Assembly: GCA_964653835.1 (NCBI GenBank)
Contig: CAZZFZ010000001.1
Location: 19,746 to 75,687 of the forward strand
Source: an uncultured Anaerolineales bacterium
GTDB taxonomy: Bacteria > Chloroflexota > Anaerolineae > Anaerolineales > UBA11858
DNA: 55,942 nt
Direction: 5' to 3'
Shown: in pieces, positions 6,914-23,553 of the stretch
Numbering within the stretch: position 1 is the first letter of the stretch
Layout of the letters: each line of letters starts with the position of its first letter
Notes under the pieces: model-generated
The model's input: only the letters and a program-made list of their open reading frames with translations
What the model was told of the DNA's origin: nothing
Database searches by the model: none
Program-made: the position numbers and the translations under genes

Positions 6914-7111
6914 ATGACCAACCCTGCGACACAAAAAGATTCTAATGGCGCGCGCTGCGAGGTCATCCTCTTGATGGTGGAGCAAATTGAAAAGCTGCCT
7001 CCACGGTTGCGTGCCTGTCACGTGTTGACGTGGTATTATCATCCGCGTTTGGAATATCCCTGGGATGAGTTGCGCGCTGCTTTGCTCAGGGCGCTCCTCA
7101 AGCCCAACTGA
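6914..7111 (+). CDS. Small hypothetical protein (65 aa) with a sigma-70 region-4-like 'LPPRLR' segment
   Basis: Near-consensus SD AAGGAGG (6902-6908) lies 5 nt before ATG 6914. The stop at 7111 falls before the psuG start. 'IEKLPPRLRACHVLTWYY' resembles the start of the ECF sigma region 4 helix-turn-helix, but the protein is far too short for a sigma factor. Confidence 0.45.
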   Translation: MTNPATQKDSNGARCEVILLMVEQIEKLPPRLRACHVLTWYYHPRLEYPWDELRAALLRALLKPN

Positions 7112-7133
7112 TCGAAATTCGGAGTGTAACGTA

Positions 7134-8060
7134 GTGAATTTGAAGAGTGCGTATATTCTGGGGGATGAGGTTTCCCGCGCCCGTGAGATGGGTGTCCCGC
7201 TGGTCGCTTTGGAAACCACAGTGGTCACCCACGGTTTGCCTTCCCCTCGCAACCTGGAGCTGGCTGCGGATATGGAGACCGCGGTGCGGGAAGGTGGCGC
7301 CGCGCCGGCGACCATTGCTGTGCTGGATGGGAAAATCTGCGTGGGGATGACGGCGGAGGAACTGGAGCGTCTGGTGGCGGCGCGGCCCTTGCGAAAGATC
7401 AGCCGTCGCGATTTCGCCCCTGCATTGGCCCGCAAAGAGAGCGGAGGGACGACCGTCGCCGGGACGATGATCGCGGCCCACGCCGTGGGTATTCAGGTGT
7501 TTGCCACCGGCGGCATCGGTGGGGTGCATCGCTTTCCCCCTTACGATGTCTCCGCCGATCTGCCAGAGCTGGCGCGTACCCCGTTGATCGTGGTTTGCGC
7601 TGGGGCCAAGGCGATCCTCGACCTGCCCGCCACCCTGGAGATGTTGGAGACCTGGGGGGTGCCGGTGATCGGCTACCAGACGGACGAGTTCCCGGCATTT
7701 TACTCCCAGAGCAGCGGATTGCCGGTCAGCGCCCGCGCTGATTCGCCCGCGGAGGTGGCTGAGATTGCCCGCGCCCACTGGGGGCTGGGGTTGGAGAGCG
7801 CTGTGCTGGTGGCCGTGCCGCCACAGGCCTCGGCGCTGCCCGCCGAAGAGCTGGAAGCAGCGATTCAGCAGGCGTTGCGCGAGGCCGAAGCCCAGGGGAT
7901 ACGCGGCCAGGCCAGCACGCCCTTTTTGCTGGCGCGGGTGAGTGAACTCACCGGTCAGGCCAGCCTGCACGCCAACCTGGATTTATTGTTGAACAACGCC
8001 CGCGTTGCCGCTCAGATTGCCGTTGCTTTGGGAGGGAATAAGGCAAAGACGTTTGTGTAG
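7134..8060 (+). CDS. psuG: Pseudouridine-5'-phosphate glycosidase
   Basis: 'PLVALETTVVTHGLPSPRNLE', 'ATIAVLDGKICVGM', 'TTVAGTMIAAH..GI.VFATGGIGGVHR' and 'DVSADL.EL..TP..VVCAGAKAILD' match the PsuG (IndA) family. GTG 7134 is preceded by GGAG at 7121; the track ORF start at 7065 looks like an in-frame extension. Confidence 0.9.
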   Translation: MNLKSAYILGDEVSRAREMGVPLVALETTVVTHGLPSPRNLELAADMETAVREGGAAPATIAVLDGKICVGMTAEELERLVAARPLRKISRRDFAPALARKESGGTTVAGTMIAAHAVGIQVFATGGIGGVHRFPPYDVSADLPELARTPLIVVCAGAKAILDLPATLEMLETWGVPVIGYQTDEFPAFYSQSSGLPVSARADSPAEVAEIARAHWGLGLESAVLVAVPPQASALPAEELEAAIQQALREAEAQGIRGQASTPFLLARVSELTGQASLHANLDLLLNNARVAAQIAVALGGNKAKTFV

Positions 8061-9455: not shown

Positions 9456-10226
9456 TCAGGCGCGTTCTTCGGCGATGACCGGGTTGACCAGCTCGCCGAT
9501 TCCTTCGATGTGAACGCGCACTTCATCCCCGGGGTTGAGCGGGCTGACGCCGGCAGGCGTGCCGGTCAGGATCAGGTCGCCGGGTTCCAGGGTCATCACG
9601 GAAGAGATAAAAGCGATCAATTGCGGGATGGAGAAGACCATATCGCGGGTGGAGGCCATCTGGCGCATCTCGCCGTTGACGTGGCAGGTGACCAGTACAT
9701 CGGTTGGGTCGATGGCGGTTTCAATCCACGGCCCCAGCGGGCAGAAGGTATCGAAGCCTTTGCCGCGCGTCCACTGGCCGTCGCTCATTTGCAGGTCGCG
9801 TGCGGTGACATCGTTGGCGGCGGTGTAGCCCAGGATGTGGTTTTTGGCCTCTTCAGGGGCGATCCAGCGGCCGCGCTTGCTGATGACTACGGCCAGCTCG
9901 GCCTCGTGCTCCACCTGCTTGGATTGTGGCGGCAGCACGATGTCCTCGCCCGGCGCGATCACCGCCGAGGGGGGTTTGAGGAAGATCAGGGGGACCTTCG
10001 GCACCTCGGCCTGATGTTCGGCGGCGTGGGCGGCGTAGTTGCGGCCCACGCAGATGATTTTGCTTGGCTGCACCGGCGCGAGAAGACGAATCTCACTGAG
10101 AGGAAAGCGCAGTTCTCCTCGCTGATAAGCCCCGAAAATGTCGCCGTCAATCGGCCCGGCCTGATCTTCGAGCACCCAGCCGTAAGCGGCTTCGCCGTTG
10201 GAGGTTTGGTAACGAATGATGCGCAT
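9456..10226 (-). CDS. Fumarylacetoacetate hydrolase (FAH) family protein
   Basis: 'KIICVGRNYAAHAAE', 'PLIFLKP', 'EAELAVVI', 'GYT..NDVTARDLQ', 'KGFDTFCPLGPW', 'MVF....LIAFIS..MTL.PGDLILTGTP.GV'. Start chosen at 'MRIIRY' (ATG 10226); the track ORF extends to 10268. Confidence 0.9.
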   Translation of the reverse strand: MRIIRYQTSNGEAAYGWVLEDQAGPIDGDIFGAYQRGELRFPLSEIRLLAPVQPSKIICVGRNYAAHAAEHQAEVPKVPLIFLKPPSAVIAPGEDIVLPPQSKQVEHEAELAVVISKRGRWIAPEEAKNHILGYTAANDVTARDLQMSDGQWTRGKGFDTFCPLGPWIETAIDPTDVLVTCHVNGEMRQMASTRDMVFSIPQLIAFISSVMTLEPGDLILTGTPAGVSPLNPGDEVRVHIEGIGELVNPVIAEERA

Positions 10227-10331
10227 GGGTTTTGTACCTTTTTGGTGAATGCGTGTAAAGTCTATCACAAGATCGAAGAAGGGGGCAGATGTTCTCCGGA
10301 ATCTCTTCCGGTGCGTGGGCGCGGCGAGGCG

Positions 10332-11210
10332 TTAGGGGGCGAGCGGGAGGGTGACCAGCATGCCGGTCAGCGCGTCCAGGCCCGAGGAGTTTCCCCAGCC
10401 GAGGAGGTCATCCAGCGTCTTTTCTGTGGCGGTGCGTGTGCCCATCAAGGCGTCCAGCGCGTGGATCAGACGTTCGTCCGCCAGCCCGTCGCCGGCGCAG
10501 GCGATCAGCCCGGCGCTGATCGCCGTGGAGCGCGCCTGGATCATCTGGATTAGCTCTTCTTGGAGATTCTCCAGATCGCCTCTCAGGCCCAGGACATTGC
10601 CCCAGCGGTGGAGGGCGAGCATCAGCCCGAGGAGGAAATCGTCGCCCGATGGGGTGAGGCCCCCGCCGTAGCCGATTAACGGTACGGCCAGGGCAGGGAT
10701 TTGCTGCCAGCGTGCCTCGTGGAGGGCGGCGCGAATCGCCAGTACGGCTTCTTCCCGCGGATGCTGGCCTTTAGCCTGGCGTGAAAGTAAGGCGGGGATG
10801 ATGGGGGCAAACCCTCTCTCTGGTTTGCGGTGGTATGCCTGGATGGCAAAGCCAGGCCGAGGGGAGGGATGCGCCGCGAGAGGCGGTTCGGGGCACCAGA
10901 CCTGCGCCTGCCGCAGGTCAATTTGCAGCTTGACCTGTGAGAACAGGAGCCCCTCGGGTGCGCGTTCCCCTGCGGTTTCTGGAGTCAGGCGTGCGAGTTT
11001 GGGGGCGTCCTGGTGATCCAGGTTAAGCGTCAGCGGGCCGCGAAAACGTTCTGTCGAGAGGAAGACGATCTTCCGATTGGAGCATTGCAGGAACGCGCCG
11101 CGCGAAGTCGTCCCCACAACTTGAAGTGAGCGAGTCTGGTGCAGAATCTGCTGCGCTGCTGATCCGATGGAAGTGCACTGGAGTGAAGCGGTGGAGCTCG
11201 TTGGATTCAT
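10332..11210 (-). CDS. DUF2877 (E. coli YlbF-like) protein
   Basis: 292 aa. The motif 'LIGYGGGLTPSGDDFLLGLMLAL' and the overall size fit what I recall of DUF2877. It lies next to the FdrA and DUF1116 genes, its usual partners. Confidence 0.7.
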   Translation of the reverse strand: MNPTSSTASLQCTSIGSAAQQILHQTRSLQVVGTTSRGAFLQCSNRKIVFLSTERFRGPLTLNLDHQDAPKLARLTPETAGERAPEGLLFSQVKLQIDLRQAQVWCPEPPLAAHPSPRPGFAIQAYHRKPERGFAPIIPALLSRQAKGQHPREEAVLAIRAALHEARWQQIPALAVPLIGYGGGLTPSGDDFLLGLMLALHRWGNVLGLRGDLENLQEELIQMIQARSTAISAGLIACAGDGLADERLIHALDALMGTRTATEKTLDDLLGWGNSSGLDALTGMLVTLPLAP

Positions 11211-11221
11211 CCGTTCAGGTC

Positions 11222-11249
11222 TTGTGTAATTTTATGTGTGGATTATAAT
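11222..11249 (+). promoter_or_regulatory. Candidate sigma-A promoter in the divergent intergenic region
   Basis: TTGTGT (11222-11227), 16-nt spacer, TATAAT (11244-11249). A second TATAAT lies at 11268-11273. This would give a leader of about 130 nt to the CoA-transferase gene. Confidence 0.35.
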
Positions 11250-11385
11250 GGGGCGTGTGCATTGATGTATAATAACACCCCGAGGCGAAGCCTGACAGTC
11301 TGAGAACAGGCGGCGCCTCCCCCTAATTGACAATTGAGATGATGAGTCCCGTAAGCCGGATACTAGCGTTGGTGGAGGCGCGTTG

Positions 11386-12594
11386 ATGCAGGCATTGAGC
11401 GACATCCGGGTATTGGATCTGACCCGCGCCCTGGCGGGCCCGTTTTGTACGATGATGTTGGGGGATTTGGGCGCAGATGTGATCAAGGTGGAGCGCCCTG
11501 GCAAGGGGGACGAAAGTCGCGGCTGGGGGCCGCCGTTTGTGGGGGAATCTTATGAAGGCTATCCGGGCGAATCGGCGTATTTTCTGGCTATCAATCGCAA
11601 CAAGCGCAGTCTGACCGTAAACTTGAAATCTGCTGAAGGGCAGGAGATCATCCGCCGCCTGGTCAAAGAGGTGGATGTTTTTGTTGAGAACTTCCGCACC
11701 GGCGTGCTGGACGCCATGGGGCTGGGGTATGAGGACTTGCGCGCCGTCAACCCGCGCCTGGTGTATTGCTCGATCAGCGGCTATGGACGCACCGGCCCCT
11801 ATGCCAATCGCCCAGGGTATGACGCCATCTTGCAGGCCGAGGGCGGGCTGATGAGCATCACCGGCCCGGTGGAAGGGCCGCCTTCACGCGTGGGGATTCC
11901 CATCATTGATATCACCACAGGGATGTTCGCCGCCAGCGCCATTCTCGCCGCGCTGCGAGCGCGCGATCAGAGCGGCGAGGGGCAGCTTGTGGATATCTCG
12001 CTACTGGATACCAGTGTGGCGTTGCTGTCGAACGTGGCTTCGAATTACCTGGTGGGGGGGATTGAGCCGCCGCGGTTAGGCAACGCTCATCCCAATATCG
12101 CGCCCTATGGCGCCTTTCGGGCGCAGGATCGCTGGTTTGTGCTAGGCGCGGCCAATGAGCGGCAATGGGGGTTGTTGTGTGACGTACTTGGGCAGCCTGA
12201 GTTGAAGGATGACCCTCGCTTTGCCACAAATGGCGACCGCCTGGCCAACCGGGAGGCTCTGCACGATACGCTGAATCAGTTGTTTGCCACCCGCCCGGCG
12301 GAGGACTGGCTGGCGCAGCTGCGCCAGGGAGGTTTGCCATGCGGGCCGATCAACGCCATCCCGGATGTGTTTGCTCATCCACAGGCGGCAGCGCGCGACT
12401 TCGCTTTATCTGTTGAGCACCCCTCGGCTGGCGAGGTGAAGGTGGCGGGGTTCCCCTACAAGCTCTCCGAGACGCCAGCGACGATCCGACGCCCGCCGCC
12501 CAGGCTTGGCGAGCACACGGCCGAGGTGTTGGAGCAAATACTGGGCGTTGACTCTCAGAAACTGACACACTATCGCCAGCACGGCGTGGTGTGA
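11386..12594 (+). CDS. Family III CoA-transferase (CaiB/BaiF/Frc type)
   Basis: 'IRVLDLTRALAGPFCTMMLGDLGADVIKVERP..GD..R', 'N.NKRS...LK...G', 'DV.VENFR.GV...LG' and 'SISGYG..GP' are hallmark strings. GGAGG lies 8 nt before ATG 11386. Confidence 0.9.
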   Translation: MQALSDIRVLDLTRALAGPFCTMMLGDLGADVIKVERPGKGDESRGWGPPFVGESYEGYPGESAYFLAINRNKRSLTVNLKSAEGQEIIRRLVKEVDVFVENFRTGVLDAMGLGYEDLRAVNPRLVYCSISGYGRTGPYANRPGYDAILQAEGGLMSITGPVEGPPSRVGIPIIDITTGMFAASAILAALRARDQSGEGQLVDISLLDTSVALLSNVASNYLVGGIEPPRLGNAHPNIAPYGAFRAQDRWFVLGAANERQWGLLCDVLGQPELKDDPRFATNGDRLANREALHDTLNQLFATRPAEDWLAQLRQGGLPCGPINAIPDVFAHPQAAARDFALSVEHPSAGEVKVAGFPYKLSETPATIRRPPPRLGEHTAEVLEQILGVDSQKLTHYRQHGVV

Positions 12595-12628
12595 GCGCAT
12601 AAATCCATTCGTAAAAAAAGGAGCAGGC

Positions 12629-14350
12629 ATGGCTAAAATTGCTGTGGAGATTCGTTCGGGGGCGTATTACGATTCCGCTTTTTTGATGCAGTTGCAGGGA
12701 TTCCTGGCCGATCAGCCCGGGGTGTTGGACGTCGGCGTGGTGATGGGCACAGATGCGAACAAGGACGTGCTCGCTCAAAGCGGGTTGCTGGTGCACGAGG
12801 CGCAGGACGCCCTGGCGGACGACCTGGTGATCGTCATTAAGGGAGAGACGGAGGAAGCCGCTCAACTCGCCCTCAGTAAGGTGGATGAGTTAATCGCCTC
12901 GCGACGCAGCCGCGGCGGCGATGAAGATTACTTGCCCAAGACGGTTGCCTCGGCTGCAGCGATGCTCCCTGAAGCGCAGTGGGTGCTGGTTTCGGTGGCC
13001 GGGCGTTACGCCGCCGGCGTGGCGCGCCAGGCGTTGGCGCAGAATAAGCACGTTTTCCTTTATAGTGATAACGTCTCCGTGGAGGACGAGGTCGCCTTGA
13101 AACAGGAAGCCGCCAGCAAGGGGTTGCTGGTGATGGGGCCAGACTGCGGCACGGCGATCATTAACGGCATCGGTTTGGGGTTTGCCAACAAGGTGCGCGC
13201 CGGTTCTATTGGCATGGTGGCGGCTTCCGGGACCGGTTTGCAGCAGGTCTCGGTGCGTATCCATCAAATGGGCGGTGGGCTGACCCACGCCATCGGCACC
13301 GGCGGACGGGACGTCAAGGATGCTGTGGGGGCGATCACCGTGCGCCAGGGGTTGGATTTGCTCAGCCGAGACCCGGACACGAAAGTGATTGTGCTGGTCT
13401 CCAAGCCGCCTTCTAAGAAAGTCGCCGATGACCTGGTGCAGGCGGCGCGCAGGGCGGGCAAGCCGGTGGTGATTGACTTTATCGGCTATGCCACGGCGCT
13501 GCGTCAGGTGGAGAATATTTACTTCGCCACCACCTTTGACGAGGCTGCCCAGCTGGCGGTGGAACTATCTCAGGTAGATGCCGATTGGGGCGCGTCAGAT
13601 GTGTCGAAGTTTGCCCCGGAGCAAAAATACCTGCGTGGGCTGTTCTCGGGCGGCACACTGGCCTATGAGAGCCTGCTGATCCTGCATAATTATTTCCCCG
13701 GTGTGTATTCCAACATCCCCTTGAGTGAAGAGTATCGTCTGAAGGACTCGCTCGTCAGCCAGGAGCACACCCTGATTGACCTGGGCGAGGACGAGTTTAC
13801 CGTGGGGCGATTACACCCGATGATGGACAACGACCTGCGGGTGCGCCGCATCGCCAAAGAGGCCGCTGACCCTGAGACCGCGGTGATCCTGCTGGATGTG
13901 GTGCTGGGTTACGGCGCGCATGCAGACCCGGCCAGCGAACTGGCCCCGGCGATCGCCGCGGCCATCCAGACCGCCAAAGAAGCGGGGCGCCATCTGGAGG
14001 TTGTCGCCGTGGTTTCCGGTACGGATGAAGATCCGCAGGACATGGCTGCTCAAATTGAGGCGCTGGAGCAGGCTGGCGCGCGCGTTGAGACCAGCAACGA
14101 TCAGGCGGCCAATTATGTTGGACGATTGTTGAAGGCGTTGGAAGAGCGCGATGTCACGTCGGAAGAGTCCGCATCTGGCGTCGATCTGGCGACTCTCAAG
14201 CAACCGCTGGCGGCGATCAACGTCGGCCTCGAATCGTTCACTGAGAGCCTTGAGGCGCAGGGCGCACGAGTGGTTCATGTAGATTGGCGACCTCCGGCGC
14301 GCGGCAATGAAAAACTGGCGGGGATCCTGGAGCGCATGCGGAGCAAGTAA
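12629..14350 (+). CDS. fdrA: FdrA-like protein (succinyl-CoA-synthetase-like fold)
   Basis: 'GLLVMGPDCGTAIINGIGLGFANKV', 'GMVAASGTGLQQV', 'THAIGTGGRDV' and 'VLVSKPPS' parallel my recollection of E. coli FdrA. Good SD (AAGGAG) is present. Confidence 0.88.
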   Translation: MAKIAVEIRSGAYYDSAFLMQLQGFLADQPGVLDVGVVMGTDANKDVLAQSGLLVHEAQDALADDLVIVIKGETEEAAQLALSKVDELIASRRSRGGDEDYLPKTVASAAAMLPEAQWVLVSVAGRYAAGVARQALAQNKHVFLYSDNVSVEDEVALKQEAASKGLLVMGPDCGTAIINGIGLGFANKVRAGSIGMVAASGTGLQQVSVRIHQMGGGLTHAIGTGGRDVKDAVGAITVRQGLDLLSRDPDTKVIVLVSKPPSKKVADDLVQAARRAGKPVVIDFIGYATALRQVENIYFATTFDEAAQLAVELSQVDADWGASDVSKFAPEQKYLRGLFSGGTLAYESLLILHNYFPGVYSNIPLSEEYRLKDSLVSQEHTLIDLGEDEFTVGRLHPMMDNDLRVRRIAKEAADPETAVILLDVVLGYGAHADPASELAPAIAAAIQTAKEAGRHLEVVAVVSGTDEDPQDMAAQIEALEQAGARVETSNDQAANYVGRLLKALEERDVTSEESASGVDLATLKQPLAAINVGLESFTESLEAQGARVVHVDWRPPARGNEKLAGILERMRSK

Positions 14351-14374
14351 CACACAAAGTACGCGGAGGCGAAG

Positions 14375-15268
14375 ATGAAAGAATTTATTGGTGCATGTGT
14401 TCAAATTGCCATCACGCCGAACGATGTGAAAGCCAACGTGGAAAAGGGCGTTGCTTGGCTGGAGAAGGCCGCGCGCGAATACGAGGCCGAGCTGATCGCA
14501 TTCCCTGAGACGGTGACCACTGGCTATGACACCGGTTTGACCGCTGAAGGGTTATGGGATCTGGTGGATGAAGCCGGTGGCGAGATCAGCCGGGAGATCC
14601 AGAAAGCTGCTAAGTCCCTGGGGGTTCATGTGATCTGGCCTTCTTATCGCCGTGGCCCAAACCGCGGGGAGGTGTACAACTCCTCCATTTTGATCGGCCC
14701 GGACGGGGAGATCATCGGCATTTATGATAAGACACACCCCGCGCCATGGGAGCGCGTTCAGGGCGGCGGCTGGGCGACCATGGGGACCCGCGCCGACGTC
14801 TTTGAGACCGCGCTGGGGAATATCGGCATGATTATCTGTTACGATGGCGATTTCCCTGAACTTTCGCGCTTGCTGGCGATCCGGGGCGCGGAGGTGATTG
14901 TGCGTTCGGCAGCGCTGCAACGCAGTTACGATATCTGGTACATCACCAATTGCGCCCGCGCCTACGATAATCACGTCTACCTGATGGGGAGCAACCTGGT
15001 GGGGCCAGACGCAGCCGGGAATTATGGTTTTGGACACAGCATGATCGTCAACCCGATTGCCTGGCGGCTGGCGCAGGCGCGCGGCACGGAGGAGATCATC
15101 GCCGCCCGTCTCGACCCCGACCCGATGCGCTATATCACTTATGGCAGCAAAAGCCCGCAGACCTTCGATCATCTTGAAGATCGTAACCTGGAATTGTACG
15201 CAGAGATTCTCAAGGAGGCGCGCGCCCGCTTTGAACCGGGTAAACGTTTTCCTCAAGATAAAGCCTGA
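14375..15268 (+). CDS. Carbon-nitrogen hydrolase (nitrilase superfamily amidase)
   Basis: The Glu-Lys-Cys triad contexts are visible: 'LIAFPET', 'YDKTHP', 'MIICYDGDFPE'. 297 aa. Confidence 0.9.
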   Translation: MKEFIGACVQIAITPNDVKANVEKGVAWLEKAAREYEAELIAFPETVTTGYDTGLTAEGLWDLVDEAGGEISREIQKAAKSLGVHVIWPSYRRGPNRGEVYNSSILIGPDGEIIGIYDKTHPAPWERVQGGGWATMGTRADVFETALGNIGMIICYDGDFPELSRLLAIRGAEVIVRSAALQRSYDIWYITNCARAYDNHVYLMGSNLVGPDAAGNYGFGHSMIVNPIAWRLAQARGTEEIIAARLDPDPMRYITYGSKSPQTFDHLEDRNLELYAEILKEARARFEPGKRFPQDKA

Positions 15269-15294
15269 TGAATAAATAGAGAGGAAGGTTCCCG

Positions 15295-16536
15295 ATGGAT
15301 ATTGAAAAAGCCAATGCTGAAGCTGTAGGTCGCATGATGGAGGCGCGTCCTACGGTGGTGGGGATGGCGAAAGCCATTGATGTTGTCCCCGGGATGCGGG
15401 AAGACTTGCTGATGCACGCCGGCCCGCCGATCACCTGGGAGCGAGCTTCTGGCCCGATGAAGGGGGCGATTACCGGGGCGTTGATTTTTGAGGGCAAAGC
15501 CAAAAACATGGAAGAGGCCCAAAAGCTGGTCGAATCCGGCGAGATCAAGCTGGAGCCTTGCCATCACCATCAATCGGTGGGGCCGATGGCCGGAGTGACC
15601 TCTCCCCATATGTCGGTCTATATCCTCGAAAACAAAACGCATGGGAATTACACCTACTCCAACCTCAACGAGGGATATGGCAAGGTGCTGCGCTACGGGG
15701 CGTACAGCGAGGAAGTGATCGAAAAGCTGACGTGGATGGAAGAGGTCATGGCCCCTGTGCTGGGCAAAGCGATCGAATTGAGCGGTGGGATTGATATCCG
15801 ATCGCTGCTGGCTGAGGCTCTCCACATGGGTGACGAGGGGCACAACCGCAACAAGGCGGGTTCGGTGCTCTTCACCAAGGCGCTGGCACCTTATATCGTC
15901 AAGGCCACCGATGATCGCGAGGTCGCTTCCGAGATCATCAAGTTTATGGGCGACAACGCCCTGACGGTTCTCAATCCGGTGATGGCGGCCTGCAAGTCGA
16001 TGGTGGACGTGGCGCACAACGTGGAGGGCAGCACCATCGTCAGCGTGATGGCGCGCAACGGCACCGATTTTGGTATTCGCGTTTCGGGCCTCGGCGACCG
16101 CTGGTTCACCGCGCCGGTGGCTAAGCCTAAAGGGTTGTACTTCCCCGGCTTCACCGAGGACGACTCCAGTGGCGACATCGGCGACAGCACGATCACCGAG
16201 ACGGCGGGCATCGGCGGCTTCGCCATGGCGGCGGCCCCGGCGATCGTCACCTTCGTCAGCGGCACGCCCAAGGACGCCATCAATGCCACGCTGGAGATGT
16301 ATGAGATCACTTTCACCGAGCACAAGTTCTTCACCATCCCGCAGCTCGATTTCCGCGGTACGCCCACCGGCATTGATATCCGCAAGGTGGTTGAAACCGG
16401 CATAACGCCGCGCGTCAACACCGGCATCGCCCACAAAGACCCCGGCGTTGGCCAGGTCGGCGCGGGTCTGGTGCGCCCGCCGATGGAAATGTTCGAAGAG
16501 GCGTTGGTGGCCTTCGCGGAGAAGTATGGGTTTTAG
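15295..16536 (+). CDS. DUF1116 (E. coli YlbE-like) protein
   Basis: 'LLMHAGPPITWE...GPMKGA', 'PCHHHQSVGPMAGV', 'NLNEGYGKVLRYGAY', 'FGIRVSGLGDRWFTAP', 'ITETAGIGGFAM' and 'VETGITPRVNTGIAHK' closely parallel my recollection of YlbE. Confidence 0.88.
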   Translation: MDIEKANAEAVGRMMEARPTVVGMAKAIDVVPGMREDLLMHAGPPITWERASGPMKGAITGALIFEGKAKNMEEAQKLVESGEIKLEPCHHHQSVGPMAGVTSPHMSVYILENKTHGNYTYSNLNEGYGKVLRYGAYSEEVIEKLTWMEEVMAPVLGKAIELSGGIDIRSLLAEALHMGDEGHNRNKAGSVLFTKALAPYIVKATDDREVASEIIKFMGDNALTVLNPVMAACKSMVDVAHNVEGSTIVSVMARNGTDFGIRVSGLGDRWFTAPVAKPKGLYFPGFTEDDSSGDIGDSTITETAGIGGFAMAAAPAIVTFVSGTPKDAINATLEMYEITFTEHKFFTIPQLDFRGTPTGIDIRKVVETGITPRVNTGIAHKDPGVGQVGAGLVRPPMEMFEEALVAFAEKYGF

Positions 16537-16645: not shown

Positions 16646-18316
16646 ATGGATCGTCAACAAGTTATCAAACTGCTTGAAACCGCCCGCTGGTACGACCTCA
16701 CCCAGGCGTTGAGCATTTTCACGCCGCCGTACCCGGGCGAGATGCCGTTGCAGGTGCACTTCTTCAAGCGGCTGACCGGCTCCTTCGGCGGCGGCCAGGG
16801 CGCTAATGGTCAGTTGATTGAGTGGAGCAACAACAATGGCACGCATCTGGTGGGGCCGCGCGCCTTTCACTCCGGCGAGCGCGCCATCGCCGATATCCCC
16901 CTCACCGATTTGTGCGGTGAGGGCGTGATTGTGGATATCTCCGACGCGGTGGAGGATTACGGCCTCTACACCCCGGAGATGATTACCGAACGCGCCGAGG
17001 TTAAGAAGGGCGATATTCTCATTATCAACACCGGCTATCACAAATACGGCTGGGATCAGCCCGACATCCCCAACCCGGAGTGCCAGGGCGGCATCGAAAA
17101 TAAGGAGTTTGGCTACTATCTGCGCCACCCCGGCCCCTCGCCGGAGTTCTTCCCGTGGGCGCTGGATATGGAGCTGAAGGTCATCGGCGTGGATTGCGGC
17201 TCCGCCGAACACCCGATGAACACCAACCTGCGCTACATGCACGCCCGCGAGTTTGAGAAGGCGGAGGCCAAGCTCAAGGCGAAATACGGCAAGAGCTGGG
17301 ATGAGATGTTCCCGCCGGAGTGGTATCACAAGCTGACGCATATCACCATGCCCAAGGCGGGGCTGCTGCTGGCCGAATCCCTCGGCGGGCAGATTGACGA
17401 GCTGAGCAACCAGCGCGCCTGGATCATGCTTCAGCCGATCCCCTTCATGGAAGTTGAATCGGCCTGGAGCCGGGTGGTCGCTTTGCAGGCCCCCGAGGGG
17501 ATGGATGATGCTGAGTTCTTCGAGGCCATGCGACAGGTGGAGATGCTCGATATGACCCTGCCCTTTAGCGTGCAGACCCCGCAGTGGGCTAACTACGAGC
17601 CGCTGAGCGTCAAATACACCAAGCGCGTCGGTGGGCAGTATTTTGGCCTGGGGCGCAACAACGCCCATTGCCGCGCCAGCTTCCACTTGGCAACGCACAT
17701 GGATGGCGAGAAACACTTCCACGCTGGTGGGCGCACCATTGGCGAGATGCCCTTTGAGGCCTGGTTCGGCCCTGGGGCGGTGGCCGATATCTCCGAGTTC
17801 GTCAGTGATACCAGCGTGTATACCCCGGAGATGATCGAAAAGGTGGTCGAGGTGCGCGAGGGAGATATCCTGGTCATCAAGACTGGTTATCACAAATACG
17901 GCTGGAACAGCCCGGACTCAGATGAGTTCCGCTACATGATCCGGCATCCTGGCCCCTCACCTGATTTCGCTGACTGGTGCATCGAAAAGAAGATCAAGTG
18001 GTTGGCGGTGGATTGTGTGGCGATGGAGCACCCCATGAATACCATCCAGCGCATCTGGCACCCCAAGACCTTTGAGGAAGCCAACCAGAAGCTGATTGAA
18101 CAATACGGCGCGGACTGGGATACCGTCTATCCTCTGGATAAGTACTACCAGGATATGCACCTGAATCTGTTCCCCAAGGGCATCATCCACGCCGAGAACC
18201 TGGGTACTGATCTGGCGCGCATGGAGAGCGGCCGTTACTTCATCGGTTGCTTCGTGCAGAAGGGCATGGAGCTGGCCTCCTGCTGGGCGCGCTTTGTGGC
18301 TTTCAAAGAAAGCTGA
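16646..18316 (+). CDS. Tandem-domain cyclase-family protein (two kynurenine-formamidase-like domains fused)
   Basis: 556 aa. Both halves share 'GDIL.I.TGYHKYGW', 'RHPGPSP.F..W' and 'GVDC/AVDC...EHPMNT'. The second half keeps 'HLATHMDGEKH'; the first half has 'NNGTHLVGPRAFH'. SD GGAGG lies upstream. Confidence 0.85.
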   Translation: MDRQQVIKLLETARWYDLTQALSIFTPPYPGEMPLQVHFFKRLTGSFGGGQGANGQLIEWSNNNGTHLVGPRAFHSGERAIADIPLTDLCGEGVIVDISDAVEDYGLYTPEMITERAEVKKGDILIINTGYHKYGWDQPDIPNPECQGGIENKEFGYYLRHPGPSPEFFPWALDMELKVIGVDCGSAEHPMNTNLRYMHAREFEKAEAKLKAKYGKSWDEMFPPEWYHKLTHITMPKAGLLLAESLGGQIDELSNQRAWIMLQPIPFMEVESAWSRVVALQAPEGMDDAEFFEAMRQVEMLDMTLPFSVQTPQWANYEPLSVKYTKRVGGQYFGLGRNNAHCRASFHLATHMDGEKHFHAGGRTIGEMPFEAWFGPGAVADISEFVSDTSVYTPEMIEKVVEVREGDILVIKTGYHKYGWNSPDSDEFRYMIRHPGPSPDFADWCIEKKIKWLAVDCVAMEHPMNTIQRIWHPKTFEEANQKLIEQYGADWDTVYPLDKYYQDMHLNLFPKGIIHAENLGTDLARMESGRYFIGCFVQKGMELASCWARFVAFKES

Positions 18317-18324
18317 TCTCGCCA

Positions 18325-18368
18325 CGGCCTGACGGGTTTTGCTGACCTGTCAGGCCGTTTTGTCTCTT
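18325..18368 (+). terminator. Terminator-like hairpin abutting the next start codon
   Basis: CGGCCTGAC (18325-18333) pairs with GTCAGGCCG (18349-18357). It is followed by TTTTGTCTCTT and then ATG 18369. Confidence 0.45.
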
Positions 18369-19238
18369 ATGATCCTTGTCACGGGCGCAGCAGGCAAAAC
18401 CGGGCGGGCGGTGATCCAGGCTCTGGCGACGGTGGGAGCCTCGGTGCGGGCTTTTGTCCACCGCCAGGAACAACGAGCCACCGTCGAAGCGCTCGGCGCG
18501 CGGGAAGTGTTCTGTGGTGATCTGCGCGACCCTCAGGCGCTGGCGCAGGCGGCGCAGGGCGTGCGGGCTGTGTATCACATCTGCCCCAACGTCCACCCCG
18601 ATGAGTTTGCTATTGGCAGCGAGGTGATCGCCGCGGCCGCCGCTGCGGATGTGAAGCACTTTGTCTTTCATTCGGTGCTGCATCCCCAAACCGAGGCCAT
18701 GCCGCACCACTGGCACAAACTCCGCGTGGAAGAGCGTTTGTTTGAGTCCGGTTTGCCTTTCACCATTTTGCAGCCTACGGCTTATATGCAAAACATCCTG
18801 GCCTATTGGCCGCAAATCGCTGAAGAGGGTGTCTATCCCGTCCCCTACAATGTGGACGCCCAGACCTGCCTGGTGGATCTGGTCGATGTGGCTGAGGTTG
18901 CCGCGCAGGTGTTGACGCGTCCCGGACACGTCGGCGCGACCTATGAACTGGTTGGCACGGATGCGCTCACTCCAAGGGCGATCGCCGGAGAACTCGGCGC
19001 CCATCTGGGTCAACCCGTCGCCGCCCATCAGACTCCGGTTGAGGATTGGCGACGTCAGGCCGCCGACAAGTTGAGTGGATATGCCCTCGATGCCCTGACT
19101 CGTATGTTTGTCTATTATGACCGTTATGGGTTGCGCGGCAACTCGAAAGTGTTGACTTGCCTGTTGGGTCGCGCGCCGACCTCACTGAAGCAGTTTCTGC
19201 GGCGCGAACGCCCGCAACCCAACGAAACTCTGGCGTGA
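18369..19238 (+). CDS. NmrA-like / atypical SDR NAD(P)-binding protein
   Basis: N-terminal Rossmann motif 'MILVTGAAGKTGRAV'. Start chosen at ATG 18369; the track ORF opens at TTG 18339. Confidence 0.85.
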   Translation: MILVTGAAGKTGRAVIQALATVGASVRAFVHRQEQRATVEALGAREVFCGDLRDPQALAQAAQGVRAVYHICPNVHPDEFAIGSEVIAAAAAADVKHFVFHSVLHPQTEAMPHHWHKLRVEERLFESGLPFTILQPTAYMQNILAYWPQIAEEGVYPVPYNVDAQTCLVDLVDVAEVAAQVLTRPGHVGATYELVGTDALTPRAIAGELGAHLGQPVAAHQTPVEDWRRQAADKLSGYALDALTRMFVYYDRYGLRGNSKVLTCLLGRAPTSLKQFLRRERPQPNETLA

Positions 19239-19300: not shown

Positions 19301-20194
19301 ATGAAGCCACCCCCATTCGAGTATTATGCTCCTGCTTCGCTGGAAGAGGCTCTGGCGTTGATGGCCGAACACGGCTGGGACGCCAAGCCGCTGGCCGGTG
19401 GGCAAAGCCTGATCCCAATGATGAACTTCCGCCTTGCCCAACCGGAGGTGCTGGTGGACCTGAACGGCATCGCGGAGCTGGGGTATATCCGCGCAGCGGA
19501 TGACGGCGGCGTGTTGATCGGCGCGATGGCGCGCCACAAGACGGTTCAGCATGATGCCCTGATCGCCGAGCGCGCCCCGCTGGTGCACGAAACCATGCCC
19601 AAAATCGCCACCCAGCAGATCCGCAACCGCGGCACCTTTGGCGGCAGCCTGGCGCACGCCGACCCTGCCGCCGAGCTGGTCTCCGTCAGCATGGTGTTGG
19701 ATGGGCGCATGCGTTTGCAGAGCGCGCAGGGAGAGCGCTGGGTGTCAGCGAGCGAGTTTTTCATCAGCCTGTTCACGACCGCGCTGGAGCCGGAAGAATT
19801 ACTGGTTGAAGTACACCTGCCGCCGCTGCCGGAGCGCGCTGGATGGTCGCTACAAGAGGTCGCCCGCCGTCCGCATGATTTTGCTTTGATGGGCGTCGCC
19901 GCGGTGGTCAGCCTGGACGAGGATGGGAAGTGTAACTTCGCCCGGCTGAGTTACCTCAGCGCTGGCGATGGCCCGATGGAAGGGCGGCAGGCTGCCGCGG
20001 TGTTGGTGGGCGAGAAGCCTTCCGCCGAGGCGATCCGGGCCGCGGCTGAAGCGGGCGCCTCGCTGGACATCGAACCAAGCGATGACATTCACGCCACGGC
20101 GGAGTTCCGCCGCCACCTGGCGAACGTGCTTACCCGTAGGGCGTTGGAAGAAGCCTTTGCGCTGGCTAGCGGGCAGCGAAGGAGCGAACCATGA
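19301..20194 (+). CDS. Molybdenum hydroxylase FAD-binding (medium, CoxM/XdhB-like) subunit
   Basis: 'LAGGQSLIPMMNFRLA', 'IRNRGT.GGSLAHADP' and 'ATAEFRRHL' are typical of the CO-dehydrogenase flavoprotein family. The stop overlaps the next start (ATGA). Confidence 0.9.
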   Translation: MKPPPFEYYAPASLEEALALMAEHGWDAKPLAGGQSLIPMMNFRLAQPEVLVDLNGIAELGYIRAADDGGVLIGAMARHKTVQHDALIAERAPLVHETMPKIATQQIRNRGTFGGSLAHADPAAELVSVSMVLDGRMRLQSAQGERWVSASEFFISLFTTALEPEELLVEVHLPPLPERAGWSLQEVARRPHDFALMGVAAVVSLDEDGKCNFARLSYLSAGDGPMEGRQAAAVLVGEKPSAEAIRAAAEAGASLDIEPSDDIHATAEFRRHLANVLTRRALEEAFALASGQRRSEP

Positions 20195-20667
20195 GCGAGT
20201 TATTCAAATTGAAAGTAACCGTTAACGGCGAAGTGTATGAGCGCGAGGTGGAACCGCGCCTGTTGTTGAGCGATTTCCTGCGCCACGAGCTGGGGCTGAC
20301 CGGCACGCACGTTGGTTGTGAACATGGCGTCTGTGGTGCCTGTACCGTACTGCTGGATGGCGAAGCGGTGCGTTCGTGTTTGATGTTTGCCCCCCAGGCT
20401 CACGGACGCGAGATCGTCACCGTGGAGGGGCTGGGGACCATTGATGAGATGCATCCGCTGCAGCAAGCGTTTCAGGAGGCCCACGGCCTGCAATGCGGCT
20501 TCTGCACCCCGGGTTTCCTCACCTCGTTGATTCCTTTCCTGGAGGAGAACCCCAACCCCAGCGAAGAAGAGATCCGCGAAGCGATTTCAGGTAACCTGTG
20601 CCGTTGCACGGGGTATGTGCACATTGTGGAAGCGGTTAAGCTGGCAGCCGAGAAGATGAACGCCTGA
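20191..20667 (+). CDS. Molybdenum hydroxylase [2Fe-2S] (small, CoxS-like) subunit
   Basis: Cys motifs 'CEHGVCGACTV', 'CGFCTPG' and 'CRCTGY'. 158 aa. Confidence 0.92.
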   Translation: MSELFKLKVTVNGEVYEREVEPRLLLSDFLRHELGLTGTHVGCEHGVCGACTVLLDGEAVRSCLMFAPQAHGREIVTVEGLGTIDEMHPLQQAFQEAHGLQCGFCTPGFLTSLIPFLEENPNPSEEEIREAISGNLCRCTGYVHIVEAVKLAAEKMNA

Positions 20668-20717
20668 CGCGTTCGGGCGCACCCCCCGCGCCCAGACGGT
20701 GTTATAAGGAGAGTACC

Positions 20718-23060
20718 GTGACAAAGAAATTTGTTGGCCAACGCGTTAAACGCAACGAGGACCCTCGTTTGCTAACCGGGCAGGCGTTGTTCGTGGATGA
20801 TGTAGACATCCCCGGCATGCTGCATGCGGCTTTCTTGCGCAGCGATTACGCTCATGCCCGCATCGTGCGAATTGATACCACGCGCGCCCGTCAACGCCCC
20901 GGCGTGGTGGCGGTTTACACCGCCGAGGATATGGGCGCGGATTGGCAACCCGGCCCACCGCTGGTTTCGCCGCCCCCCACCGTGGAAGATGTGACGTTCT
21001 ACTCCCGGCGGCAACCCCCTTTGGTGAAAGAGAAAGTCCGTCACGCGGGCGAGGCGATTGCCGTGGTCATCGCCGAGAGCCGCTACATCGCCGAGGACGC
21101 AGTGGATGACATCGAGATTGAGTACGAGCCGCTGCCCGCGGTGGTGGATATGGAAGCCGCCCTGGAGCCAGGCAGCGCCCTGGTGCACGATGATCTCGAA
21201 TCCAACCTGGCGGCGCATCTATATCAGCAGAAAGGGGATTACGAAGCGGCGCGCCAGGAGGCCGATCTTGTCATCCGTCGTCGCATTGTGATTGACCGCG
21301 GCGCGGCAGCAGCGATGGAAAACCGCGGCATCGTCGCCTGGTGGGATGAGCGCAGCCAGCAGTTGACCATCTGGGATACCACGCAGGCGCCGATCCCCAT
21401 TCGCAACGGCACGGCCGCCCGGTTGGGGCTTTCTGAGAATCAGGTGCGGGTGATCGCTCCCTTTGTCGGCGGTGGGTTCGGCCCCAAGATCATGATGTTC
21501 TACCCCGAGGAGATGCTCATCCCCTGGGTCTCCATGCAGTTGGGCCGTCCCGTCAAGTGGATTGAGGACCGCCGCGAGAACTTCTACGCTACCACGCAGG
21601 AACGCGGCCAGATTCACGATGTGGAGATCGCTCTTTCGAAGGATGGGCGCATCCTGGGGCTGAAGGATGATTTTCTGCACGACACTGGCGCTTATGACCC
21701 CTATGGCCTGACCATCCCGCTGAACACGCAGAGCCACGTCATGGGGGGGTACGATATTCAGAACTTCTCTTCGGAGTTCAAGGTCGTTTTCACCAATAAG
21801 ACCATCGTCACGCCGGTGCGCGGCGCGGGACGTCCGCAGGGGATCTTCGTCATCGAGCGCATGCTGGATATCGCCGCCCGCGAGCTGGGCATGGATCCGA
21901 TTGAGCTGCGCATGAAGAACTTCATCCCGCCGGATAAATTCCCTTACCACCATCAGATCATCGATCAGGCCTTTGCCGAGTTGATCTTCGACAGCGGCAA
22001 CTACAAGCCGGTGATGGAGAAGGCGCTGGAGTTGATCGGCTACGAAAAATTCATCAAAGAAGAGCAGCCGCGCCTGCGTAAAGAAGGTCGCTACGCCGGC
22101 ATCGCTGTCGCCCCGTTTGTCGAGACTTCGGGCGTTGGGCCATACGAGGGCGCGCGCATTCAAATTGAACCCAGCGGACGCGTCAACCTGGCGACCGGTA
22201 TCGGCACGCAGGGGCAGGGGCATTTCACCTCCTTTGCCCAGATCGTCGCCGAGCAACTCGGCGTGGACGTTACCGATGTGCGTGTAGTCACGGGCGACAC
22301 CGCTGAGTTTCACTGGGGCACCGGGACGTTCGCCAGTCGCGGCGCGGTAGTCGCTGGCAACGCGGTGTTGGCGGCGGCGACCAACGTCCGCAAGAAGGTG
22401 CTCAAGCTGGCCAGTAAGGTGTTGGAGGCGCCGGAGGACGAGCTGGAAATTGAGGACGGCGTGGTGCGCGTGGCGGATGTGCCCCGCATTTCGATCTCGC
22501 TGGGTGAGCTGGCTGCGCTGGCCAACCCCTTGCGTGGCGCGGTTGAACCTGGCACAGAGCCGGGCTTGGAATCCACCGATTACTTCGGGCCACAGTATGG
22601 CGCGGCGGCTTTCGGTGTCCACGCCATGATCCTGGAAGTGGACCCGGAAACCATGATGGTGGAGATTAAGCGTTACGTGGTGGTCGAGGACTGCGGTGTG
22701 ATGCTCAACCCGACCATCGTGGAAGGGCAAATCCACGGTGGTGTCTCCATGGGTGTCGGGCAGGCGTTTTACGAGAAACTGCACTACGATGATAACGGCC
22801 AGTTACTCAACGCCTCGCTGATGGATTATCTGATCCCCACGGCGCATGAAATGCCGCGCGAGTTCAAAGTTGGACACCTGGAGACGCGCTCGCCGTTGAA
22901 CACGTTGGGGAGCAAAGGCGTGGGCGAGGCTGGCGCCATCCCCGTGCCGGCGTTATTCGCCCAGGCGCTGGAGAACGCCTTCCAGGATCGCAAGTTGGAG
23001 ATCCTGGAGACTCCGCTCAGCCCCAACCGCTTGTTTGAGTTGTTGCACGAGGAGAGTTGA
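20718..23060 (+). CDS. Molybdenum hydroxylase molybdopterin-binding (large, CoxL/XdhA-family) subunit; not a bona fide CO dehydrogenase
   Basis: 780 aa. 'VGQRVKRNEDPRLLTGQALFVDD' N-terminus. The active-site loop reads 'TPVRGAGRPQG' rather than the form-I CODH 'AYxCSFR'. 'GSKGVGEAG' lies near the C-terminus. GTG start with AAGGAG upstream. Confidence 0.92.
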   Translation: MTKKFVGQRVKRNEDPRLLTGQALFVDDVDIPGMLHAAFLRSDYAHARIVRIDTTRARQRPGVVAVYTAEDMGADWQPGPPLVSPPPTVEDVTFYSRRQPPLVKEKVRHAGEAIAVVIAESRYIAEDAVDDIEIEYEPLPAVVDMEAALEPGSALVHDDLESNLAAHLYQQKGDYEAARQEADLVIRRRIVIDRGAAAAMENRGIVAWWDERSQQLTIWDTTQAPIPIRNGTAARLGLSENQVRVIAPFVGGGFGPKIMMFYPEEMLIPWVSMQLGRPVKWIEDRRENFYATTQERGQIHDVEIALSKDGRILGLKDDFLHDTGAYDPYGLTIPLNTQSHVMGGYDIQNFSSEFKVVFTNKTIVTPVRGAGRPQGIFVIERMLDIAARELGMDPIELRMKNFIPPDKFPYHHQIIDQAFAELIFDSGNYKPVMEKALELIGYEKFIKEEQPRLRKEGRYAGIAVAPFVETSGVGPYEGARIQIEPSGRVNLATGIGTQGQGHFTSFAQIVAEQLGVDVTDVRVVTGDTAEFHWGTGTFASRGAVVAGNAVLAAATNVRKKVLKLASKVLEAPEDELEIEDGVVRVADVPRISISLGELAALANPLRGAVEPGTEPGLESTDYFGPQYGAAAFGVHAMILEVDPETMMVEIKRYVVVEDCGVMLNPTIVEGQIHGGVSMGVGQAFYEKLHYDDNGQLLNASLMDYLIPTAHEMPREFKVGHLETRSPLNTLGSKGVGEAGAIPVPALFAQALENAFQDRKLEILETPLSPNRLFELLHEES

Positions 23061-23100
23061 ATCGTTTCGCGAATTACATTTATGAGGAGAGGAAGCTGAC

Positions 23101-23553
23101 ATGAAGATATCTGGCGAATATGTTTTTGACGGCCAGCGTGATGTGCTCTGGCAGGCCCTCCGTGACCCGGAGGTGCTTGCCAACGCCATGCCGGGGACAC
23201 AGCGCCTTGAGAAAATCAGTGATACAGAGTATCAGGGGGAAATGAAAGTCCGCATCGGTCCCGTTGGGGGGAGCTTCAGCGGGAAGATCACGGTATCGGA
23301 CGAAGTGCCACCAGAACGTTACACCATGACGGTGGAAGGCCAGGGCAAAACCGGCTTTCTCAAGGGAGTGGGGCGGATCGAGCTGGAAGACCTGGGAGAT
23401 GGCACAACGCGCATGGTTTACACGGGGGAGGTGCAGATCGGCGGCAAAGTTGCCAGCGTGGGACAACGTCTGTTTGACACCGTGAGCAAGAACATCATCC
23501 GTCAAGGACTGGATAAGATCAACGAATCTTTGAAAGCCCGCCCCTCAACATAG
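23101..23553 (+). CDS. CoxG-like SRPBCC protein
   Basis: 150 aa. 'MKISGEY.F......W..L.DPEVL...MPG' and '..G.....G.V.IGG..ASVGQRL' fit the carbon monoxide dehydrogenase subunit G family. Confidence 0.85.
   Translation: MKISGEYVFDGQRDVLWQALRDPEVLANAMPGTQRLEKISDTEYQGEMKVRIGPVGGSFSGKITVSDEVPPERYTMTVEGQGKTGFLKGVGRIELEDLGDGTTRMVYTGEVQIGGKVASVGQRLFDTVSKNIIRQGLDKINESLKARPST

Follow-up and report, generated by a model that had tools for sequence, protein, structure and literature searches.

AllFGH homologues in an Anaerolineales gene cluster as candidate components of an oxygen-independent oxidative pyrimidine pathway

The AllFGH enzyme of Escherichia coli interconverts oxamate plus carbamoyl phosphate and oxalurate plus phosphate – a transcarbamylase reaction that needs all three subunits and is the family's only biochemistry (Kim & Kim 2024; PMC11326118). 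Homologues of the three subunits are encoded within a 55,942-nucleotide stretch of DNA from an uncultured Anaerolineales bacterium (GenBank assembly GCA_964653835.1, contig CAZZFZ010000001.1, positions 19,746 to 75,687), hereafter the window. The E. coli allFGH genes are contiguous with allK and lie beside allECD, whereas in the window allH is divergently transcribed, genes for a CoA-transferase and an amidase are interleaved with the trio, and allK is missing. On balance, comparison of this locus with its relatives leads us to favor a reading in which the five genes form the core of an oxidative pyrimidine pathway that would work without oxygen, occupy 10.3 to ~35.9 kb, and take uracil to acetyl-CoA.

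The established routes of pyrimidine degradation known to us are the reductive (Pyd), Rut, URC, and aerobic oxidative pathways. The last, known from aerobic actinomycetes, employs uracil/thymine dehydrogenase (EC 1.17.99.4), barbiturase (EC 3.5.2.1), and ureidomalonase (EC 3.5.1.95), the latter two being mentioned in papers on the AtzD family; to our knowledge its first enzyme, the dehydrogenase, has neither an assigned gene nor a reference sequence. Na+-translocating decarboxylases are known as a methylmalonyl-CoA type in Veillonella and as a malonate decarboxylase in Malonomonas. We regard the cluster described here as a variant of two known kinds of system, enzymes of the AllFGH type and the pathway of oxidative pyrimidine breakdown. 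Full-text literature searches returned no description of the cluster or of the pathway; for the xanthinase pathway they returned only papers that cite it, which leaves room for overlap with the genes identified by Tong et al. (2023). The nearest published accounts concern E. coli AllFGH (PMC11326118), allFGHK next to biuret genes in nitrifiers (PMC12625717), and the reductive uric acid pathway (PMC12507026).

An AllFGH trio at the front of a larger block

The source genome is a 2.97-Mb metagenome-assembled genome (MAG) that is 93% complete. Families were called with Pfam and NCBIfam profiles, comparing NCBIfam bit scores with each model's cut-off, and the E. coli K-12 proteins served as the reference for AllF, AllG, and AllH identities. 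The resulting gene-family assignments within the block are strong; the functions that we propose for the genes are all drawn from comparison.

The open reading frame (ORF) map and profile searches recovered all five genes named in the initial annotation (Table 1), including the DUF2877 gene, and bore out the arrangement it described: the DUF2877 gene divergent, the CoA-transferase ahead of fdrA, and a Glu-Lys-Cys amidase between fdrA and DUF1116. The three subunits belong to the same families as in E. coli (PF00549/PRK06091, PF06545, and PF11392). AllF and AllG are 40% and 47% identical over their full lengths to FdrA and YlbE, and AllH, which has GGGLTPSGDD at residue 182, is 32% identical to YlbF over its C-terminal 108 residues only. 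Gaps of 24-34 nucleotides separate the four genes on the plus strand, and one of 172 nucleotides lies between allH and the CoA-transferase gene. Accurate for the genes themselves, the span given in the initial annotation fell short of the full extent of the locus, as a same-strand block of ~25 kb begins with these five genes.

Table 1. Features of the block and its surroundings (positions in the window; bits are NCBIfam scores).
Feature	Position	Strand	Basis
AllH/DUF2877-like subunit	10332-11210	-	PF11392, E 1e-19
Family III CoA-transferase, predicted malonate (dicarboxylate) CoA-transferase	11383-12594	+	PF02515 CoA_transf_3, E 2.5e-145
FdrA/AllF-like subunit	12629-14350	+	PRK06091 'acyl-CoA synthetase FdrA', 556 bits vs cut-off 433
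C-N hydrolase, predicted malonamate amidase	14375-15268	+	PF00795 CN_hydrolase, E 2.6e-44
AllG/DUF1116-like subunit	15295-16536	+	PF06545, E 4.7e-96
Two-domain cyclase-family metal hydrolase, predicted ring-opening amidohydrolase (barbiturase analogue)	16646-18316	+	PF04199, two stretches
NmrA-like NAD(P)-binding protein	18339-19238	+	PF05368
Molybdenum hydroxylase FAD subunit (CoxM)	19301-20194	+	Pfam
Molybdenum hydroxylase 2Fe-2S subunit (CoxS)	20191-20667	+	Pfam
Molybdenum hydroxylase Mo subunit (CoxL)	20718-23060	+	Pfam
CoxG/SRPBCC protein	23101-23553	+	PF06240
NCS2 nucleobase permease, pyrimidine type	23875-25227	+	Uracil permease 218 bits > RutG 173 > xanthine permease 144, all under cut-off
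Bmp/PnrA-type (nucleoside-type) ABC importer: binding protein, ATPase, two permeases	25435-30478	+	Pfam
Na+-translocating biotin decarboxylase, carboxyltransferase (alpha)	30682-32232	+	TIGR01117 mmdA 766 bits, cut-off 999
Na+ decarboxylase small membrane subunit (probable)	32253-32570	+	Small hydrophobic ORF, 105 aa
Na+ decarboxylase biotin carrier	32545-33012	+	–
Na+ decarboxylase beta pump	33023-34147	+	TIGR01109 465 bits > cut-off 191
Second, single-domain cyclase-family hydrolase	34151-35068	+	PF04199, motif HLGTHLD
241-residue conserved protein, GNAT fold	35157-35882	+	No Pfam match
CodA-family amidohydrolase, possible cytosine-to-uracil feeder	40695-41939	+	PRK07572 (cytosine deaminase subfamily) 260 bits, under cut-off

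The two enzymes interleaved with the trio point toward dicarboxylates and their amides. The CoA-transferase is closest to succinyl-CoA:dicarboxylate transferases: its top NCBIfam model is succinate--glutarate CoA-transferase (421 bits, under cut-off), and its nearest solved structure is SUGCT (9br7, 397 bits). In the C-N hydrolase, Glu45, Lys119, and Cys155 lie in the expected motifs, and the nearest solved structures – at only ~80 bits – are formamidase and the Nit3 and Nit2 omega-amidases. The substrates of formamidase and omega-amidases are small amides and dicarboxylate monoamides.

A predicted route from uracil to acetyl-CoA

In the proposed pathway, uracil (perhaps also thymine) would be taken up by either the UraA/RutG-like permease or the ABC importer of the Bmp type. 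The CoxMSL-type molybdenum (Mo) hydroxylase would hydroxylate uracil at C6 to give barbiturate, and the cyclase-family metal hydrolase would open the ring to ureidomalonate (N-carbamoylmalonamate). AllF-AllG-AllH would then cleave this acyl-urea with phosphate, releasing carbamoyl phosphate and malonamate. A carbamate kinase encoded elsewhere in the genome would use the carbamoyl phosphate and ADP to form ATP, NH3, and CO2; the C-N hydrolase would convert malonamate to malonate and NH3; and the family III CoA-transferase would form malonyl-CoA, from which the Mmd-type biotin decarboxylase would produce acetyl-CoA and CO2 while pumping Na+.

The predicted AllFGH substrate, ureidomalonate, is one CH2 longer than the oxalurate of E. 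coli; the predicted chemistry – phosphorolysis of an N-carbamoyl amide to carbamoyl phosphate and an amide, feeding carbamate kinase – is the same. As in the aerobic oxidative pathway, uracil would pass through barbiturate and ureidomalonate to malonate, beginning with a multi-subunit Mo/FAD/Fe-S enzyme. The proposed route would differ in that a PF04199 cyclase substitutes for the AtzD-family barbiturase, that the ureido group leaves as ATP-yielding carbamoyl phosphate and not as urea via ureidomalonase, and that a malonamate amidase step is added and malonate is coupled to CoA activation and Na+-pumping decarboxylation. No AtzD/TrzD-family barbiturase (PF09663) was found in any of 18 cluster-bearing genomes, this one included, in a search of unproven sensitivity, as control genomes also lacked a match; RutA and RutB have no homologue in this genome. 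The energy logic resembles that of the YgeW/YqeA steps of the reductive uric acid pathway, in which ureido cleavage with phosphate yields carbamoyl phosphate and carbamate kinase then makes ATP (PMC12507026) – though YgeW is an OTC/ATC-fold transcarbamylase acting on an N-alkyl ureide, whereas the AllFGH type has an unrelated fold and acts on an N-acyl ureide.

Automated annotation would likely label the genes at 19301-23553 as an aerobic form I CO dehydrogenase, a candidate that we rejected. The active-site loop of the Mo large subunit reads PVRGAGRPQG and is not of the Cu-binding VAYRCSFR type of form I CoxL, its score against NCBIfam TIGR02416 lies under the cut-off (541 bits vs 991), and no coxDEF maturation genes were found in the window. 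The nearest structures are CoxL (8uem), quinoline 2-oxidoreductase (1t3q), and 6-hydroxypseudooxynicotine dehydrogenase (7dqx). Together with the loop, these matches argue for an N-heterocycle-type hydroxylase rather than a form I CO dehydrogenase, and we predict that the enzyme is a uracil/thymine dehydrogenase.

The cyclase encoded after AllG is an internal duplication in which the HxxTHxD motif is intact only in the C-terminal half (HLATHMD, residue 347); the N-terminal half reads NNNGTHLVG. Cyclase matches to solved structures (kynurenine formamidases) are weak (~25 bits) and uninformative on the substrate. BLAST scores of the NCS2 permease against E. coli proteins rank UraA (176 bits) and RutG (170) above UacT (101) and XanQ (61).

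The genes at 30682-34147 are predicted to encode a malonyl/methylmalonyl-CoA decarboxylase with the same parts as the Veillonella type: carboxyltransferase, small membrane subunit, biotin carrier, and beta pump. The small membrane-anchor subunit is probably the product of the 105-residue ORF, which has a hydrophobic N-terminus and overlaps the called start of the biotin carrier by 26 nucleotides. Unlike the Veillonella and Malonomonas systems, this decarboxylase lies in a nucleobase catabolic block, and its alpha subunit scores under the mmdA cut-off.

The initial annotation had reported that carbamate kinase, allantoin, and ureidoglycolate genes are missing, and none was found in the window. 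Across the whole MAG, homologues of allA, allC, allD, allE, glxK, and allW are likewise absent. With no genes leading from allantoin to oxalurate, the genome has no visible source of oxalurate. For carbamate kinase the claim holds for the window but not for the genome, as a single arcC (TIGR00746, 386 bits vs cut-off 358) lies unlinked on contig C116, nor for other lineages, in which arcC occurs inside homologous clusters (see below). At this locus (C116:333-8930, L008), two OTC/ATC-fold transcarbamylases and a Bmp-type ABC importer adjoin the kinase, which is 52% identical to E. coli YqeA; one of the transcarbamylases is 35% identical to YgeW. XdhD/SsnA-like genes lie on contig C13 and a HyuA-like gene on C14. 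Given these likenesses, the C116 kinase and the C13 and C14 genes look like a dispersed reductive uric acid pathway.

Conservation of the cluster across phyla

We compared the locus with two samples that together comprise 120 related loci. A cross-phylum set of 80 loci, retrieved with the AllG profile and scored by tblastn with the window proteins, covered Chloroflexota, Bacillota, Acidobacteriota, Gemmatimonadota, Planctomycetota, Myxococcota, Caldisericota, Thermotogota, Armatimonadota, Hadarchaeota, and Bathyarchaeia; a second set held 40 Chloroflexota loci. Presence and absence were scored in 401 Chloroflexota genomes, with the AllG, AllH, and arcC counts raw and uncorrected for phylogeny.

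AllG is encoded in 77 and AllH in 70 of the 401 genomes. Both were present in 69 and neither in 323, leaving eight genomes with AllG only and one with AllH only. The subunits co-occur across genomes, as would be expected of an obligate three-subunit enzyme, and genomes with an unlinked allH still retain the whole trio. AllF adjoins AllG in 109/120 loci. In 51/80 cross-phylum and 17/40 Chloroflexota loci, the gene directly after AllG encodes a cyclase, and Mo-hydroxylase subunits are found within 10 kb of AllG in ~50/80 and ~20/40, respectively; in L047, L049, L105, and others, allF-allG-cyclase sits between coxS and coxL. Less frequent members of the 80 loci are an NCS2 permease (21), the 241-residue protein (19), the C-N hydrolase (18), and the CoA-transferase (16). 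No locus in either set contains allC or allE; allD is scored in none of the 80, and a single locus, L075, has a weak (28%) allD-like match. This AllFG-cyclase-Mo context differs from the E. coli allantoin region and is much more widespread.

The insertion that the initial annotation had singled out is itself recurrent in this census: CoA-transferase orthologues (44-72% identity) occur in 28 related loci, and 18 Anaerolineales-type loci have a C-N hydrolase orthologue (53% identity or more) between AllF and AllG, whereas in L132, L134, L141, and L148 it occupies another place in the cluster. In a homologue search whose matches all had at least 83% identity, the closest AllG relatives (85-94% identity) come from Anaerolineales/Chloroflexota MAGs. 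The closest relatives, among them the complete genome CP070764.1, have the order CoA-transferase, AllF, C-N hydrolase, AllG, cyclase, NmrA, CoxM, CoxS, CoxL, CoxG, Bmp importer; beyond the importer come genes for a second cyclase and a thiolase-like protein, and then allH.

An AllG tree inferred by maximum likelihood, with E. coli as the root and SH-aLRT support, gave a corresponding picture. The window AllG falls in a 13-row Cyc+CNhyd clade (support 98) that is nested in a cyclase/Mo clade of 100 rows (98). Outside the latter are E. coli and, diverging first, the arcC-only and context-free loci, and several supported nodes lie between the window AllG and that of E. coli. Rather than clustering tightly with the E. 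coli oxalurate enzyme, the window AllG stands in a separate clade, and the trio is encoded among a Mo hydroxylase, cyclases, a pyrimidine-type permease, and a malonyl-CoA-type decarboxylase.

Gene content at other loci provides clues to substrate and products. L147, from a Bacillota MAG, encodes a UraA-like permease, PucR, AllH, AllF, AllG, cyclase, M42 peptidase, Na+-pump beta subunit, MdcA (890 bits vs TIGR01110 cut-off 789), malonate decarboxylase acyl carrier protein (91 vs 84), and Mdc gamma (268 vs 237), so that its AllFG module continues straight into a bona fide malonate decarboxylase operon with the MdcA, carrier protein, gamma, and beta pump parts of the Malonomonas type. In L141 (Lutispora), whose C-N hydrolase is 58% identical to that of the window, a methylmalonyl-CoA epimerase gene (125 vs 115) lies between those for the CoA-transferase and AllF. 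Neither this epimerase nor MdcA was found in the genome under study. The MdcA operon, the epimerase, and the Mmd-type decarboxylase are indirect evidence for malonate (or methylmalonate) as the carbon end product; they fit a C3 dicarboxylate skeleton, which a pyrimidine would give and a purine would not.

In cultured Clostridium rhizosphaerae YIM B02515 (L163), a homologue of the 241-residue protein is followed by a thiolase, DUF35, AllH, AllF, AllG, cyclase, CoxM, CoxS, CoxL, and, at the end of the operon, a uracil permease at equivalog level (639 bits vs cut-off 477). Among the NCS2 permeases at AllG loci, 22/25 are nearest to E. coli UraA or RutG and 3/25 to UacT. Deaminases of the CodA family also recur in AllFG clusters; orthologues of the one in the window, at 60-67% identity, are found in L048, L100, and L106.

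Carbamate kinase genes lie inside homologous clusters as well. L152 encodes, all in one direction, CoxL, CoxM, CoxS, PucR, AllH, AllF, AllG, cyclase, CoA-transferase, and carbamate kinase, and the kinase is also found beside AllG-AllF in L070 and L161 (Thermomicrobium sp.). arcC is encoded in 23/25 cluster-bearing genomes, and in 54/77 Chloroflexota genomes with AllG against 62/324 without it. This linkage and enrichment make sense only if carbamoyl phosphate is produced.

The slot of the Mmd-type decarboxylase is filled differently in close relatives, and several Bacillota also carry the gene concerned. A thiolase-like protein (PF00108/PF22691) is encoded at L164:3941-5131, L168:2360-3544, and L163:5813-7353, between the second cyclase and allH in L164 and directly upstream of allH in L163, where it is followed by the DUF35/ChsH2-type OB-fold partner. 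No orthologue of this thiolase/DUF35 pair was found in the genome under study, which has the Mmd-type decarboxylase in the same slot, and this suggests that the two are alternative ways to dispose of a CoA ester.

Other genes of the block are also shared. NmrA-like genes occur in 29 related loci (20/80 in the cross-phylum set) and CoxG genes in 33, the Bmp importer is kept after CoxG in the closest relatives, and second-cyclase orthologues (82-86% identity) follow the ABC transporter and stand beside AllH in relatives. The 241-residue family has homologues in 21 AllFG loci, often beside the thiolase/DUF35 pair, and its alignment contains ~25 invariant residues (e.g., D74, Y76, D77, R82, H127, T128, and E188-G191). 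Its AlphaFold model (pLDDT 84.4) matched only GNAT acetyltransferases in Foldseek (probability 1.0, TM ~0.5). A role in handling CoA esters (acyl-CoA) is plausible from this fold; a malonyl-CoA decarboxylase would be a guess, as the fold search gave only generic N-acetyltransferases.

Several further features flank or interrupt the block. An FAH-family protein (PF01557 with an Rv2993c-like N-terminal domain) is encoded at 9456-10268 on the minus strand, 63 nucleotides downstream of allH and on the same strand; because a homologue is lacking at all 120 related loci, we excluded this gene from the pathway as either lineage-specific or unrelated. Farther upstream, a pseudouridine-5'-phosphate glycosidase-like gene (7065-8060, plus strand, PF04227) has no kinase partner in view; its product would release uracil, and it is not kept with the cluster in relatives. 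Downstream, 36079-46358 (plus strand) forms a second nucleobase block with a Bmp binding protein, an ABC ATPase, two permeases, the CodA-family deaminase, a Mo enzyme, a CDA-fold deaminase, and XdhC. This fused 2Fe-2S/Mo XDH-like enzyme scores 727 bits against the Se-dependent-XDH model, under its cut-off, and has no adjacent FAD subunit.

Two hairpins lie within the block on the plus strand: one of 15 pairs between the cyclase and NmrA genes (18324-18358) and one of nine pairs with a T-run after CoxG (23719-23744), which could end a transcript starting at the CoA-transferase gene. Promoter and terminator scans of 9.3-25.5 kb returned no more hits than in shuffled sequence.

Alternative readings and implications

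A number of points weigh against a pyrimidine pathway as we have drawn it. Barbiturate, ureidomalonate, and malonamate are inferred intermediates, and sequence alone does not reveal what a Mo hydroxylase oxidizes. E. coli AllFGH has been measured only in the synthetic direction, with a Km for oxamate of 37 mM (PMC11326118). Two weak relatives of the C-N hydrolase, N-carbamoylputrescine amidase and beta-ureidopropionase, are hydrolytic decarbamoylases; the C-N hydrolase could be one too, and the phosphorolytic step would then be redundant. The NmrA, CoxG, second cyclase, GNAT-fold, and FAH genes fall outside the proposed steps. Decarboxylase linkage is rare – CT/OADb genes occur in 2/80 loci under a stricter filter, and under a looser one AllFG clusters with linked homologues of the Na+-decarboxylase subunits are those of L132, L134, and L147 – and close relatives carry the thiolase-like gene in the decarboxylase slot. 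Of the Chloroflexota genomes with AllG, 23/77 lack arcC, and all of the co-occurrence statistics are uncorrected for phylogeny.

The strongest competing explanation, which we nevertheless consider unlikely, is that the module degrades another N-heterocycle (a purine, for example xanthine or urate, a hydantoin, or a compound of the triazine type) and that AllFGH decarbamoylates another ureide, the malonate handling being coincidental or lineage-specific. Some variants may indeed act on other heterocycles, given the three urate/xanthine-like permeases, the PucR-family ('purine catabolism') regulators in Bacillota clusters, and the differing Mo-hydroxylase subfamilies – those of Bacillota, Caldisericota, and Thermotogota loci being only 30-35% identical to either window enzyme. 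The window itself holds the XDH-like Mo enzyme, CDA-type deaminase, and XdhC at 42-46 kb, and a metagenomic study found allFGHK beside biuret and triuret genes in nitrifiers (PMC12625717). However, most linked permeases are UraA/RutG-like, including the equivalog-level UraA of L163, and the malonate decarboxylase, epimerase, and Mmd-type enzymes fit the C3 dicarboxylate expected from a pyrimidine. Moreover, the cluster lacks imidazole-ring enzymes, and the reductive uricolytic homologues sit elsewhere, on C13, C14, and C116.

Somewhat less probable again is that AllF-AllG forms a succinyl-CoA-synthetase-like, ADP-forming acyl-CoA synthetase, in keeping with the long-standing annotation of FdrA, that works with the CoA-transferase on a dicarboxyl-CoA and yields ATP through substrate-level phosphorylation, the C-N hydrolase removing the ureido group hydrolytically. 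FdrA has CoA_binding and Ligase_CoA domains and a weak match to succinate--CoA ligase alpha, the recurrent CoA-transferase gene directly precedes fdrA in the window, and N-carbamoyl amidases are among the members of the C-N hydrolase superfamily. What speaks for a transcarbamylase instead is the biochemistry of the family (PMC11326118), the almost perfect co-occurrence of AllH with AllG, and the presence of arcC inside several homologous clusters and its enrichment in AllG-encoding genomes; many AllFG-cyclase clusters, in addition, have neither a CoA-transferase nor a C-N hydrolase.

Least likely, and in our estimation improbable, is a plain oxalurate enzyme as in E. coli, with the amidase taking oxamate to oxalate and the CoA-transferase forming oxalyl-CoA: the full-length identities to E. 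coli AllF and AllG and the matches of the CoA-transferase to CoA:oxalate and formyl-CoA transferases at 280-300 bits are outweighed by a genome without allantoin, allantoate, ureidoglycine, and ureidoglycolate enzymes to make oxalurate, by the greater nearness of the CoA-transferase to succinyl-CoA:dicarboxylate transferases, by the supported nodes that split the window AllG from that of E. coli, and by the linked decarboxylases, which are of biotin or malonate types, with no oxalyl-CoA decarboxylase linked to the cluster. Biotin- and malonate-type decarboxylases act on a carboxyl beta to the thioester (or on its vinylogue), and oxalyl-CoA has no such carboxyl.

The pyrimidine reading develops an idea already present in the initial annotation, namely that the substrate of the trio is not oxalurate but a different ureido acid, with ureidomalonate among the candidates, and that the amide is then hydrolyzed and the acid CoA-activated. 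The AllG phylogeny, the missing oxalurate source, the enzyme types, and the downstream malonate handling support this proposal.

In broader terms, and with somewhat less assurance than for the pathway itself, we regard it as nearly an even question whether the block exemplifies a pyrimidine fermentation that needs no oxygen, conserves energy, and, although undescribed, is widespread, with carriers among Chloroflexota, Bacillota, Acidobacteriota, Gemmatimonadota, Caldisericota, Thermotogota, and some archaea. In such a fermentation, the 'form II CoxL' enzymes would be the sequence-orphan uracil/thymine dehydrogenase, the cyclase would be a non-homologous barbiturase, and AllFGH would be ureidomalonate (acyl-urea) phosphorylases giving one ATP via carbamate kinase, with malonate decarboxylation adding a Na+ gradient. 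The module is carried by cultured Clostridium rhizosphaerae and Thermomicrobium strains, which makes the pathway directly testable.

If true, this would assign genes to uracil/thymine dehydrogenase, add a second, unrelated barbiturase and a second substrate for the newly discovered AllFGH family, and correct the routine labels 'CO dehydrogenase', 'acyl-CoA synthetase FdrA', and 'DUF1116'. Nucleobases are abundant in sediments, digesters, and guts, and strict anaerobes would have a way to draw both ATP and a sodium gradient from them.

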